A DNA stretch of 64,000 nt from a virus (Duplodnaviria > Caudoviricetes). The stretch is from IMG/VR virus record IMGVR_UViG_3300031110_000007, positions 2,472-66,471 of that record; one strand, given 5' to 3'. The translations under genes were made by a program, and so were the position numbers. Below, piece by piece: positions 47,187 through 52,961 of the stretch (position 1 is its first letter; every line of letters begins with the position of its first letter). Below the pieces are notes generated by a model. That model had not been told where the DNA came from. It made no database searches and saw only the letters and a list, made by a program, of their open reading frames with translations.

Positions 47187-48083
47187 TTAAACTAATTTAG
47201 ATTTAAAGAATGTAGCGGCTTTTGTACTAATAACTTTTTGAACATCTTTAATTGTTAATTGAGAGTTTTCAAGTACATCTGATTCCTCAGAAATTATATC
47301 CTGAACAACCCACTTTATATAAGCGCCTGTGTTCTCTAACTTCACCTCAACATTTTCTAAACCTTGGTTTAGTCTTTGCTCAGTGACAGAATAATTAATA
47401 AACTCATCAACTGACTTTAACTTATCAGGGTCTACAGAGTTTAAAACCTTAACCTGACTTACTGAATGCTTCTCTCCTTTAGATTTAAATACGATCTCCG
47501 GATGCTCAATACATCTTAATACTAAACCTTCACCAATGCCACTAATTCCAAAGTAAGTTCCAATAGGGCACTCATCCTCTACAATAGTTGTTAATTCTAT
47601 TAAATGGTTTTGAACTTCTATTGGGTTTGAGAAATCAATCATAATCTCACTAGTAGGAAAATCATAAATGTTATAAATACCTTGTTCATGATCTTTAATA
47701 CTTTTAAAAGGTACTGAAACTCCATCTACCAAAACCTGAAAGATAATAAAAATCTTTTCTTTTAGTTGTGTTAAAGCAACTCCTTTCTGAATGTTACCAC
47801 CACACCATTCTCCATATACAACAATGTTTTCATCGAACAAATATTTGGTCATAAATGTTAAATCCTTATTAACCATAGCTTGCATGAACCCTGCGTTATC
47901 CTGCTCTAATGTCAAAACTCTCTCTCTTGACTGATATTCAACACCGCTAGGGTAAAAAACAATCCCTGCGTTTGTTCCATGAGCTTTAATAGAGCATTCA
48001 AAATTCAATTTAACTCCTCCGTAATTCTTTAATACGTCTTGTATGGCATTTCTAAACTGCCCTGTTTTTGGGTATTTTATCAT
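47187..48083 (-). CDS. RNA ligase (Rnl2-like)
   Basis: IKAHGTN, YGEW.G..IQKG, GEGLVLR, FKSKG; start reassigned to ATG 48083. Confidence 0.8.
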   Translation of the reverse strand: MIKYPKTGQFRNAIQDVLKNYGGVKLNFECSIKAHGTNAGIVFYPSGVEYQSRERVLTLEQDNAGFMQAMVNKDLTFMTKYLFDENIVVYGEWCGGNIQKGVALTQLKEKIFIIFQVLVDGVSVPFKSIKDHEQGIYNIYDFPTSEIMIDFSNPIEVQNHLIELTTIVEDECPIGTYFGISGIGEGLVLRCIEHPEIVFKSKGEKHSVSQVKVLNSVDPDKLKSVDEFINYSVTEQRLNQGLENVEVKLENTGAYIKWVVQDIISEESDVLENSQLTIKDVQKVISTKAATFFKSKLV

Positions 48084-48093
48084 ATATTTTTGT

Positions 48094-50145
48094 TTAATGC
48101 GTTTCTGCAAATGTCCTCCCGTTTTGAACTTCACAATCCAATCTGACATTTAATTTTAAATACTTATTTACATCTTCTATAGCAAGTTTAATTTGTTTTT
48201 GTATGTCTATGATAGTGTTTTCATTATCATCAACCCTCAACATTAAGTCATCATGTGTCTGTGTAATAGGATACCCAACCCTTTTAACAACAAAATAAAC
48301 CCACATGTTAAAACAAAACACTGCTGTACTTTGGTTTATGACAGAGAATTTATCCTTCTCATTTCTAAGGAAGTACCAAAACCTACTAACAGGGTTGAAA
48401 ATCCAGTTTTCACCGTCAATCTTTTTAACCTTGAAAGTTTCTGATACTTCTTTTACAGCCCAATGAACCTTCCAATAAGCATCTATCAACTCCTGAGCTT
48501 TGTTAACTGTAATACCAAGATTACGACCAAGTGTTGTAGCCCCAACTTTATACAATGATGCATAGTTAGTTGTTTTCCCTTGACTCCTTTGACCTTTTAA
48601 CTCTTGTAATTTAACCTTCTGTTTATCCTCCGGTAGATCAAACAAAGCCTGTACCTCCTCATTATACTGGTAAAAACTAAAGTTCTTATAATCCATATTA
48701 GATATGTCTTTACCTGCTTTCCCCATATCATCTAAAGCAGCATTGTATACATAAAACAATTCCTCAGCCTCAGTCATAAGACCTGCTGTTACAGAAATCT
48801 CTGTATGAGGGTCATAGAAATCTTGTTTAGTTTTCTTAATCCTTTCAGGGTTTAATTTGAAAGTATAATGATCTGAGGTTCTTGATTCAACACCGGATAA
48901 ATCAGCTTGTATCAACCTTGTTCCTTCACTCGCTATTAAACATTCCCTTAACCAATATCCATCCCTTAAATCCTTCTTACCTGTATATTTAGGAATGTTA
49001 ACAATAACAGCATGCTGCCACCTCATTGTTACAGCTAATTGTGTAAGCCCTTGCGAGATCATATCATTCTCATCACGTTTGTTCAAAAACCCTTTCAGAA
49101 TCCCAAGTCTATGCGTGATTACCGTCAACCCATCCAAAGCCTCAATAGCAGGTTCAACCTCTACCAACTTCCTGACAGAATGACAAAGCATTTTTGTATC
49201 AGGGTTTGTTACCTGTGGTATTGCTCTTTGTTTAGTCTCCATACGTCTTTTAGATGGGTTATAAACTTCCTCACGAACATATTTGAAAGTTTCCGGCTCC
49301 CAACCTAAATCAAATAACCATTTTTTCTTTTGATCTACAGAGTTTGGGTTTCCTTCTGATATTGATAAAATATCTTCGAACTCTAAGGTATCATGTGGTA
49401 AGCCTAGTTCATCACACTTATCAATCCACTTTGCTCCGGCCACTGATAAAGACCCATCTTTTTTATACATTGTTTTAGGTCTTAACCTAATACCTGTTTT
49501 AATATGCTTTGGCATTGCAGCTTTAAGGATTTTAATTTTCTCCTCTTTCATTTCATCAAAGTAGTTATAGTGTTTTGTTGTTAACTCAACATCTACCTTA
49601 ACTTTGGCTTCTTCCTGATTAAAGGAACAATCCATAATGAAATTTAACAAATTAATTAACCTTATAATCTCATCATCAGAGTCATAAATTTTACGCATTT
49701 TCTCTAACAAATCTACCCAAAGCTTTGTATTAATAACAACGTCCTGCTCACATCTGTGCCTATACTCCTCATAACTCAACCCTACCCAATCCTCAATCTT
49801 AGGTTTTGGTGTTCCATAATCCTCTCCGTATTCTGCTAGACCAAATTTCTTTAACCTTTTAGGATGCATCCACCATGATAGAGCTAATGAATCTATGATA
49901 GTGGCTTTAACCTTTATACCTAAAACTCTCTCAATTGCTGCTCCGTCATATCGTCTACCGTTATGCATAACAATAACATTATTCTCGTCAGCAAAGGTTT
50001 TCCTGATCTTTTCATAATCCGGGGTAGAACTCATGAACCACCCCGAATCTTTTTTATATGCTACTGATAACACATGAATTTTAGTTATAGTATCTAACAA
50101 TCCATCTGCTTCAATATCTCCAACTAAAACATTATCTAAGTTCAT
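48094..50145 (-). CDS. DNA polymerase family A with 3'-5' exonuclease
   Basis: DIEAD exo I; ADLSGVESR motif A; GKTTNYASLY motif B; HDD motif C. Confidence 0.92.
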   Translation of the reverse strand: MNLDNVLVGDIEADGLLDTITKIHVLSVAYKKDSGWFMSSTPDYEKIRKTFADENNVIVMHNGRRYDGAAIERVLGIKVKATIIDSLALSWWMHPKRLKKFGLAEYGEDYGTPKPKIEDWVGLSYEEYRHRCEQDVVINTKLWVDLLEKMRKIYDSDDEIIRLINLLNFIMDCSFNQEEAKVKVDVELTTKHYNYFDEMKEEKIKILKAAMPKHIKTGIRLRPKTMYKKDGSLSVAGAKWIDKCDELGLPHDTLEFEDILSISEGNPNSVDQKKKWLFDLGWEPETFKYVREEVYNPSKRRMETKQRAIPQVTNPDTKMLCHSVRKLVEVEPAIEALDGLTVITHRLGILKGFLNKRDENDMISQGLTQLAVTMRWQHAVIVNIPKYTGKKDLRDGYWLRECLIASEGTRLIQADLSGVESRTSDHYTFKLNPERIKKTKQDFYDPHTEISVTAGLMTEAEELFYVYNAALDDMGKAGKDISNMDYKNFSFYQYNEEVQALFDLPEDKQKVKLQELKGQRSQGKTTNYASLYKVGATTLGRNLGITVNKAQELIDAYWKVHWAVKEVSETFKVKKIDGENWIFNPVSRFWYFLRNEKDKFSVINQSTAVFCFNMWVYFVVKRVGYPITQTHDDLMLRVDDNENTIIDIQKQIKLAIEDVNKYLKLNVRLDCEVQNGRTFAETH

Positions 50146-51630: not shown

Positions 51631-52053
51631 TTATTTATCTAACCTAATACCTACACACACTGGGAATCTTGGTAAACCTTCATCCGTATATTCAAAGAAT
51701 CTAATCTCAGCCGTCAACCCTACATAGCTCTCTTTCTCTTTCAAAAACTTTTCTCTCTCAGCAAAAGAAAACTTCATCCCACACCCGAAATCTTTACCAT
51801 CCGGCATTGAACAAATAAACATCCCATGCTCAGGCCTTTTCTCTGTTGGTTGTACATCTTTGATTGTGCAAGAAATATCTAAGAAGTCTTTGTATTTTAA
51901 AAGGCTTGATGATCTTTTGTTTGATTCATAACCTGCTGATCCGTGGCGTACAATTGTCCCTTCGTAACCCTCTGCAATAAACTTAGAGTGGTATTTATCA
52001 AGTTCCTGTTTATTACTTATTTCATAAGTTGGCACTAATTTTATATTGTTCAT
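51631..52053 (-). CDS. ATP-dependent DNA ligase, C-terminal piece (motifs IV-VI, OB fold)
   Basis: GYEGTIVR, YESNKRSSSLLKYK, AEIRFFEYT..GLPRFP. Confidence 0.88.
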   Translation of the reverse strand: MNNIKLVPTYEISNKQELDKYHSKFIAEGYEGTIVRHGSAGYESNKRSSSLLKYKDFLDISCTIKDVQPTEKRPEHGMFICSMPDGKDFGCGMKFSFAEREKFLKEKESYVGLTAEIRFFEYTDEGLPRFPVCVGIRLDK

Positions 52054-52054
52054 A

Positions 52055-52306
52055 CTACAAATGTTTTAATTCTGATTCTTTTCTTTTAGTTATCGCATCC
52101 TCTAAGTTTTCAAACTTACCTATGTATAGTCTCATTTTATCCTTAAATATATACACTTCCCACTTGTTACCTCTTTTATAAACACCCTTATAACCTGATG
52201 TATTGTTTTTAGGTGTACGTTTATTTAAGTTTTGTTCTGAGTGTGTAGCCCATGCCTTATACTCAGGTGTACCAAACATTCCGTGTATTACCTTGAATTT
52301 ACCCAT
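52055..52306 (-). mobile_element. Degenerate HNH-AP2 homing endonuclease remnant (HNH core missing) inserted in the ligase gene
   Basis: HGMFGTPEYKAW joined directly to ATHSEQNLNKR, then AP2-like NTSGYKGVYKRGNKWEVYI...YIGKFENLEDAITKRK. Confidence 0.8.
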
Positions 52307-52961
52307 TAAAAATACTTTTTAGTTTTTCTTGTCTTTCTTTATATGGAATGTCTAAAACTATATCATATATATTAAAATTAATTTTGTGTGTATTGGCAGA
52401 ATCCTTTTTAACTGCCTGTACTTGATTTTGAAAAGACCCAATATCTATATTATACGCCTCCCCATCGTAAATACCATCAGGTATATTAGTACTCTCTAAC
52501 TGTAAAATAATATGATTTAACGTTACTATCTCTCTATTTTTACGTGATATAAGTGTTACCTTACCTTTATTTTTTATAGCAAGCATCCTAATACCATCAT
52601 ATTTCCTTTGAATAAAGCAAGGGTACTTAATATTTTTCTCTTGATCTTTGAAGTCTTTAGCTAACATCGGTAGGATTAAGGTGTCAACCTCTGCCTCCTC
52701 TTTAGTCTTATAATAACCTTCTTTAAGTTTTGCTACAATCTTTGCCTCAGCCTCTGATATAGCTTGTTGTTCAGGTGTTGTTTCATTAGCCTTACCAATG
52801 TTCTTACCTTCACAATTTGAAATGTTTGTTGTTGCCTTCCCATCTAACAAACCACTCTCTTGAATAACTTTACTCCCTTCTGTGGATATAGTTAAAAACC
52901 TTAGTTTCCCTTTGGAATCCTTTTTGTAAATTGTTACCATAGTATAAAATTGTTTAATCAT
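52299..52961 (-). CDS. ATP-dependent DNA ligase, N-terminal piece (WGR-like domain plus motifs I-IIIa)
   Basis: PMLAK, QRKYDGIR, DGEAY, FNIYDI. Confidence 0.88.
   Translation of the reverse strand: MIKQFYTMVTIYKKDSKGKLRFLTISTEGSKVIQESGLLDGKATTNISNCEGKNIGKANETTPEQQAISEAEAKIVAKLKEGYYKTKEEAEVDTLILPMLAKDFKDQEKNIKYPCFIQRKYDGIRMLAIKNKGKVTLISRKNREIVTLNHIILQLESTNIPDGIYDGEAYNIDIGSFQNQVQAVKKDSANTHKINFNIYDIVLDIPYKERQEKLKSIFNG

Follow-up and report, generated by a model that had tools for sequence, protein, structure and literature searches.

A phage ATP-dependent DNA ligase gene divided within its adenylation domain by a free-standing endonuclease gene and predicted to work as a two-subunit enzyme

Introduction

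The splitting of phage enzymes by endonuclease genes, with neither an intron nor an intein involved, is established (PMC2988022). In phage Aeh1, nrdA is split by the free-standing HNH endonuclease gene mobE and is active as two polypeptides (PMC2988022). T4 gene 39/60 with mobA and gene 43A/43B of Aeromonas phage 25 belong to the same class (PMC2988022), as do nrdD of Felix O1-like phages (PMC4837284) and the NAMPT gene of Pectobacterium phage CB7 (PMC7344957). As for DNA ligases, phage T5 encodes an NAD-dependent enzyme as ligA and ligB (PMC3632103, PMC4319617), and the 'fractured genes' of Dassa et al. (2009) include a Felix O1-like DNA ligase from Lake Gatun with a split intein and an endonuclease (PMC2677866). 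Here we analyze a stretch of 64,000 nucleotides (nt) from the Caudoviricetes virus record IMGVR_UViG_3300031110_000007 (record positions 2,472 to 66,471; 34% G+C), hereafter the window, in which an ATP-dependent DNA ligase is encoded by two genes, LigN and LigC, separated by the remnant of an endonuclease gene.

We consider it highly probable, from comparative analysis of sequences, that the insertion of a free-standing endonuclease gene left the ligase encoded as two genes and that their products work as a two-subunit enzyme. An earlier reading of this stretch (the original prediction) had stated that no equivalent is described for a phage DNA ligase. This is overstated in view of T5 ligA/ligB (PMC3632103) and of the intein-fractured ligase (PMC2677866), but it stands for the narrower case: in the literature, we found no ATP-dependent DNA ligase whose adenylation domain is divided by a free-standing endonuclease gene, and no split ATP-dependent phage ligase without an intein.

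Results

LigN and LigC jointly match an unsplit ligase

All features of the ligase locus and its insert lie on the minus strand. The two ligase genes are:

52299-52961, minus strand: LigN, the N-terminal ligase gene, 220 residues, ending ...KSIFNG and then TAA

51631-52053, minus strand: LigC, the C-terminal ligase gene, 140 residues, starting MNNIKLVPTY

In LigN, an N-terminal domain of ~95 residues precedes the nucleotidyltransferase motifs. Motif I (KYDGIR) is located at residue 120, motif III (DGE) at residue 166, and motif IIIa (FNIYD) at residue 196; the codon of the adenylation lysine, Lys120, occupies 52602-52604. In LigC, motif IV (EGTIVR) is located at residue 31, motif V (LLKYK) at residue 51, and motif VI (PRFP) at residue 128, within an OB domain (PF14743, E = 1.2e-11). 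The order given in the original prediction, with motifs I, III, and IIIa followed by a stop codon and motifs IV to VI following a new ATG, is present at these coordinates.

LigN matches positions 1-146 of the adenylation domain profile PF01068 (E = 6.9e-12) and positions 108-360 of phrog_114 (E = 2e-41), and LigC matches positions 151-204 and 367-501 of the same two profiles, the latter with E = 6e-33. Because the ranges adjoin on both profiles, LigN and LigC are contiguous on the family profiles. Jointly, the two predicted proteins are an end-to-end match to an unsplit ATP-dependent DNA ligase, and the homology matches of the locus are far beyond chance. The closest solved structure is that of Chlorella virus DNA ligase (E = 5e-17). 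As one element of the overall explanation, and with the same good confidence as the whole, we regard the enzyme as a ligase of the minimal Chlorella-virus type that carries an extra N-terminal domain.

Position of the break

We aligned eight split ligases, with their N and C halves joined, to 46 unsplit relatives. The break falls in a stretch that varies in both sequence and length, and ligase residues are neither lost nor duplicated. The tail of LigN, ...ILK-x-IF-x, is native ligase sequence, and LigN stops 3-4 residues past the last aligned ligase residue. The start methionine of LigC is already present in the closest unsplit relative, P0015. In accordance with the pattern seen in Aeh1, the two open reading frames (ORFs) cover the unsplit homologue without gap or overlap.

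In an AlphaFold2 model of the unsplit P0015 (pLDDT, the model confidence, 94.7), the break corresponds to residues 216/217. These residues belong to a loop between a helix (residues 202-211) and a strand (residues 219-221) inside the nucleotidyltransferase domain, after the helix that follows motif IIIa and before the strand that leads to motif IV. The endonuclease gene very likely sits in a surface loop of this domain, a placement that we hold as firmly as the explanation to which it belongs. The comparative data support the earlier proposal that an HNH-AP2 endonuclease gene divides the adenylation domain after motif IIIa and before motif IV.

Occurrence of the split in related phages

Among GenBank phages, megablast found no relative of the window and tblastn found ligases of no more than 41% identity, two of which were inspected and are unsplit. 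A scan of viral contigs gave a single distant locus at 32% identity. The loci of relatives described below (L-numbers) were read from metagenome contigs.

Nearly all of the proteins closest to LigN (50-68% identity) have a length of about 211-237 residues, corresponding to the N-half alone, and full-length ligases of ~350 residues appear only from 56% identity to LigN downward. All 11 sequenced relative loci consist of LigN, one endonuclease ORF (73-274 residues), and LigC. Both halves are called as full-length ORFs in each of the 11 split loci, while LigC exits the contig end in the duplicates L004, L012, and L023. In the eight loci checked for motifs, all six motifs are present, with three misses of the regular expressions in L003 and L011. 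When half-genes are clustered at 90% identity, 35 LigC clusters share this start junction and have motif IV at residue 28-33, and about 18 N-half clusters break at the same point (53 clusters together). A tree built on the N-half region groups 17 of 19 split N-halves into one clade (SH-aLRT 95). There, the window is placed within an all-split subclade of 11 rows, the nearest of which are up to about 0.7 changes per site away. By this count of homologous sequences, the same split is widespread in a clade of related phages.

A separate group of ligase C-terminal fragments (P0330, P0333, P0336-P0339, P0341, and P0344; 104-118 residues, on contigs of 1-8 kilobases) starts within or just after motif IV, six of them beginning with MIRH.. 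or MVRW.. These fragments may mark a second, different break point in related ligases.

Selection on the two halves

Among 58 unsplit ligases, 64 alignment columns are at least 95% conserved, 40 in the N part and 24 in the C part. The split proteins keep nearly all of these residues (98.1% of the 40 columns in 18 N-halves and 97.3% of the 24 columns in 35 C-halves). The window itself keeps 61 of 64, with 39 of 40 in LigN and 22 of 24 in LigC. The substitutions listed are M to V, H to F, and I to V, the last two in LigC; one of the three mismatches, in the LigN tail, is an alignment artefact.

The ratio of nonsynonymous to synonymous substitution rates (dN/dS) was obtained from pairs among L002, L007, and L013, for which dS is unsaturated. 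It is 0.11-0.22 for the N halves and 0.13-0.21 for the C halves. For the window, dS is saturated against all relatives. The original prediction had described both halves as otherwise intact, had proposed the dN/dS comparison, and had named decay of the halves in relatives as the outcome that would speak against it. The column conservation (97-98%) and the dN/dS values of 0.1-0.2 in both halves agree with that description, and no such decay was seen.

Between the window, L003, and L022, the HNH-AP2 ORFs share 59-68% identity and the ligase halves 54-66%. Since the endonuclease ORFs are as diverged as the ligase halves, the data fit long co-inheritance of the split state. In addition, the endonuclease ORFs of the window (83 residues) and L006 (73 residues) have decayed to stumps, and the ligase halves flanking them are intact.

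The insert in the window is an endonuclease stump

The features between the ligase genes are:

52054-52298, minus strand: the interval from the LigN stop to the LigC start, 245 nt, wholly within the 83-codon ORF

52055-52306, minus strand: stump of an HNH-AP2 homing endonuclease gene, 83 residues, with a short N-terminal HGMFGTPEYKAW segment and a C-terminal AP2 domain

52247-52252, minus strand: the deletion junction TGGGCT (Trp19-Ala20 of the stump), located by nucleotide context and alignment with L003

The first 8 nt of the 83-codon ORF lie within the end of LigN, and 1 nt separates its stop from the LigC ATG; the coordinates confirm the arrangement described earlier. Its product matches solely the C-terminal part of the PHROG 'HNH endonuclease' families (positions 337-406 of 617 in phrog_374). 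The 'HNH' label rests on the PHROG annotation, and Pfam holds no model of the deleted core. The HNH-AP2 family (phrog_374, phrog_99, and phrog_4578) counts 128,187 representative proteins at E <= 0.001.

Longer ORFs of this family are present at the same site in L003 (181 residues) and L022 (151 residues). They are 59-68% identical to the 83-residue protein, and all three ORFs share a start ATG that is formed within the LigN codons ...TTT AAT G. These loci are the relatives with an HNH-AP2 gene at the site for which the original prediction had called, and unsplit forms were found as well, including L009 (see below).

Compared with L022, the window stump differs by one in-frame deletion of ~68 residues, and the same residues are missing with respect to L003 and the family consensus. 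The stump lacks the Cys-rich N-terminus and the conserved nuclease core of the family, ...GGRGI...IDRIDNNGNYEP.NCRW, and keeps the short HGMxxTPEY segment. Relatives read ...EYRAW-A...(~68 residues)...CRW-AT, while the window reads EYKAW-AT, which bears out the earlier suggestion that the core was deleted at a shared tryptophan, leaving the AP2 part. In L003, TGGGC, encoding Trp-Ala, is found on both sides of the nuclease core, and the window has a single TGGGCT. The sequences fit loss of the core through one deletion between short TGGGC repeats.

The AlphaFold2 model of the stump (pLDDT 86.8) consists of three strands and a helix. In a Foldseek fold search, the top matches are the AP2 domains of the plant proteins TEM1, WRINKLED1, and ERF1 (probability 1.00, E = 0.014-0.1), and the root-mean-square deviation from the best AP2 structures is 1.0-1.7 Å. 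The best sequence match in the PDB is also the AP2 domain of TEM1 (E = 0.038). Pfam AP2 (PF00847) is matched by 14 of 42 members of the insert family, although a Pfam search of the 83-residue ORF and of the full-length L003 endonuclease gave no match. Therefore, the AP2 assignment rests on the fold, the PDB match, and the family members.

Contigs of the window population are 100% identical at the locus, and the 83-residue form was not found outside the phage's own population. The window contains no second copy of either of the endonuclease families found at this site that could act in trans.

Two endonuclease families, homing, and re-fusion

The gap between LigN and LigC holds one of two unrelated endonuclease types. 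The HNH-AP2 type is found in the window, L003, and L022. The other type (phrog_1035, 'endonuclease VII') is found in L002, L005, L006, L007, L011, L013, and L021; it carries a ...WHIDHI...NLQPLW...N..K motif and ranges from 73 to 274 residues, with full-length inserts of 206 residues in L002, 274 in L005, and 258 in L013 and the 73-residue stump in L006. At the 5' junction, the HNH-AP2 type overlaps the LigN stop (-8 or -14 nt), whereas the endonuclease VII type follows after a spacer of 27-40 nt. At the other end, either type stops at the LigC ATG or runs over it. The endonuclease type does not track the ligase tree.

The 206-residue endonucleases of L002 and L007 share 98.5% protein identity, and their ligase halves share 81-85%. 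When L002:3001-4708 is aligned to L007:575-2282, the insert has 97-100% DNA identity per 60-nt window of the alignment. In the flanking ligase DNA, identity drops to ~75% as the distance to the insert grows, with still lower values towards the LigC 3' end. This gradient indicates homing with co-conversion between diverged phages.

L006, which is split, and L009, which encodes an unsplit ligase of 354 residues, share ~99% DNA identity except for a 254-nt insert (L006:793-1046 versus L009:3001-4065). The L009 junction reads ...ILKRNQIN-MNN..., and the sequence typical of the clade is ...IL[KR]NIF-x. In L009, the ~20 nt coding for RNQIN match exactly the 3'-terminal nucleotides of the L006 endonuclease ORF, though in another reading frame. 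Because of this match, L009 would be a product of re-fusion by deletion of the insert and not a virgin site, and its unsplit ligase probably arose from a split gene.

The spacers ahead of endonuclease VII-type inserts in L002:3646-3672, L005:3715-3750, L011:3673-3704, L013:3637-3675, and L021:1446-1481 hold a TAnnTTTG-like motif; examples are TATGTTTG, TATATTTG, and TATCTTTG. The motif resembles the -7 promoter element of Bacteroidota and may provide these endonuclease genes with a promoter of their own. Additional selfish elements are present close to the ligase in relatives: a GIY-YIG gene directly upstream of LigN (L022:679-1374), a metallophosphatase with a faint intein match (L013:440-2059), and a long ORF with a faint LAGLIDADG match (L002:5699-6645). 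We also noted an Rfam DUF805b RNA motif (L013:2108-2140; 35.7 versus a gathering score of 35.6 bits).

Expression context

An Rfam scan of the window in E-value mode (E <= 10) found no intron, its lone chance match lying outside 52054-52298, and a scan of seven related loci at the gathering score found no group I intron. A group I intron with an endonuclease ORF was rejected on these scans and because the 245-nt gap is entirely ORF. The original prediction had noted that the insert leaves no room for an intron core, with which both results are in line. A split intein was rejected as well. No Pfam intein match was found, and since the halves end and start flush with unsplit sequence, there is no space for intein halves of ~100 and 35 residues.

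A promoter and terminator scan between the halves found no terminator and a promoter signal at the level of shuffled sequence. The LigC start lies in unstructured, A/U-rich RNA (z = +1.26), and an RNA structure hiding this start was rejected on that value. GGAG or GAGG precedes just 3 of the window's 58 gene starts, and the leader sequences are rich in A and T. This suggests a host, such as one of the Bacteroidota, that initiates translation independently of Shine-Dalgarno sequences. Gaps of 1 nt and overlaps of 8 nt are common between window genes. Tight spacing at the ligase locus is thus the norm of this genome and no evidence of a special coupling device.

Elsewhere in the window, an RNA ligase gene (47187-48149, minus strand; phrog_548, E = 1e-50) adjoins a DNA polymerase A gene (48094-50145). 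The phage thus encodes an RNA ligase besides the split DNA ligase.

Discussion

According to the explanation that we favor, LigN and LigC would be translated separately from one transcript and would reassemble non-covalently into one active site, to which LigN would contribute Lys120 and motifs III and IIIa, and LigC motifs IV, V, and VI. Once the ligase gene was split, the gap would have become a landing pad between genes, where endonuclease genes home, compete, replace each other, and decay, and from which an occasional deletion of the insert re-fuses the ligase gene. The 83-residue AP2 stump would most likely be a decaying remnant. We infer the association of LigN and LigC into an active enzyme with indirect support from residue conservation and dN/dS.

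Several considerations weigh against this explanation. Both the assembly and the activity of the two polypeptides are things we infer. The endonuclease is mobile, and part of the divergence that enters dN/dS may predate the split in some lineages. A recently broken ligase gene could look intact for a while, because phages can do without a ligase of their own if that of the host is sufficient. Finally, the window population has no sequence variation at the locus and so offers no measure of selection for the window phage itself.

These points bear most directly on the idea that the insertion killed the ligase, that LigN and LigC are pieces of a pseudogene still intact, and that the phage uses the host ligase. 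Phage ligases can indeed be non-essential when the host enzyme suffices, as is the case for T7 gene 1.3, and with an endonuclease that is demonstrably mobile some of the splits may be recent. Against it, both halves are full-length ORFs in 11 split loci, with motifs checked in eight, the 53 half-gene clusters keep their conserved columns, dN/dS is low, the all-split subclade is deep, and two endonuclease stumps have decayed while the ligase halves around them have not; at 34% G+C, unselected ORFs would soon gain stop codons. We consider a dead ligase unlikely. Still more improbable, to the point that we give it hardly any weight, is that the phage regains one full-length ligase after transcription or translation, through a self-splicing intron, trans-splicing of a split intein, ribosomal frameshifting, or bypass. 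Group I introns with endonuclease ORFs often interrupt phage genes, and T4 gene 60 is a precedent for translational bypass. However, the Rfam scans of the window and seven relatives, the gap lying wholly inside an ORF, and the flush halves leave no place for an intron or intein, and the junction layouts differ between the two endonuclease families, so that there is no conserved recoding signal.

A further alternative accepts the two-subunit ligase and concerns the AP2 stump, which would have been domesticated, be it as an accessory or regulator that binds DNA, as protection of the site against related endonucleases, or as a translated spacer on which LigC initiation depends. The ORF stayed open after the deletion and, with 83 codons, is long for 34% G+C; the model of its AP2 fold is a confident one; what is left of the protein shows the same degree of conservation as the ligase halves (59-68% identity, dN 0.21-0.32, dS saturated); and the independent 73-residue stump of L006, of the other family, is also open at its 3' end to the LigC start. 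On the other hand, the 83-residue form occurs in its own population alone, so that the deletion may be recent, an in-frame result is expected one time in three, the tight spacing is normal for this genome, the LigC start is unstructured, and L009 has no insert at all. In the data analyzed here, we found no evidence that the stump is retained for function. The original prediction that the stump is kept as a translational-coupling spacer or DNA-binding factor is not upheld, given its restriction to one population and, for the spacer, the ordinary 8-nt overlaps and 1-nt gaps and the unstructured LigC start. Domestication is improbable in our view, though not so much so that it should go unmentioned. 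A more specific version, for which we would give only a slim chance, is that the AP2 stump is a small sequence-specific DNA-binding third component, co-translated with the ligase halves, that either directs or controls the split ligase or protects the locus against cleavage by related endonucleases of co-infecting phages; if true, it would be an endonuclease-to-regulator transition caught in a phage.

The ligase is a new host gene for endonuclease splitting, which is known for ribonucleotide reductase, topoisomerase, and DNA polymerase. If LigN and LigC do form a two-subunit enzyme, all six ligase motifs must meet in one active site. The locus would then be a natural complementation site with dozens of diverged variants and a near-isogenic unsplit control (L009). 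It offers a system for studying the two-chain reassembly of the nucleotidyltransferase fold and may guide the engineering of split ligases. Apart from this, the sequences present a selfish-gene life cycle at one locus, comprising invasion, homing with co-conversion, replacement by an unrelated family, decay to stumps, and probable re-fusion of the host gene.

Comparison with known systems

The 83-residue ORF shares the C-terminal AP2 domain and the HGMxxTPEY segment with HNH-AP2 phage endonucleases, but lacks their Cys-rich N-terminus and nuclease core. The predicted ligase shares its nucleotidyltransferase and OB architecture and its motif set with the Chlorella virus PBCV-1 ligase (PDB 2Q2T, 1FVI, 1P8L), which is, however, a single polypeptide without the ~95-residue N-terminal domain of LigN.

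T5 ligA/ligB is similar in that a phage DNA ligase comes from two adjacent genes, annotated as two subunits. It differs in belonging to the NAD-dependent family, in having its annotated break between the adenylation/OB part and the BRCT part, and in having a promoter region of ~200 nt, and no endonuclease gene, between the genes. The fractured ligase of Dassa et al. is, like LigN and LigC, a metagenomic phage-type ligase whose two pieces flank a free-standing endonuclease gene. In that case, split-intein halves rejoin the protein, whereas LigN and LigC have no intein residues at the break.

The closest parallel in kind is Aeh1 nrdA/mobE. In both, an endonuclease gene, with no intron or intein, interrupts an essential gene of DNA metabolism within the catalytic domain, the ORFs adjoin exactly when aligned to the unsplit homologue, some relatives carry the insert and others lack it, and reassembly of the polypeptides is expected. 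In the present case, activity as two polypeptides is predicted from sequence, the host gene encodes an ATP-dependent DNA ligase, two unrelated endonuclease families occupy the gap together with their decayed stumps, and the split is fixed across a deep clade and not in one phage.

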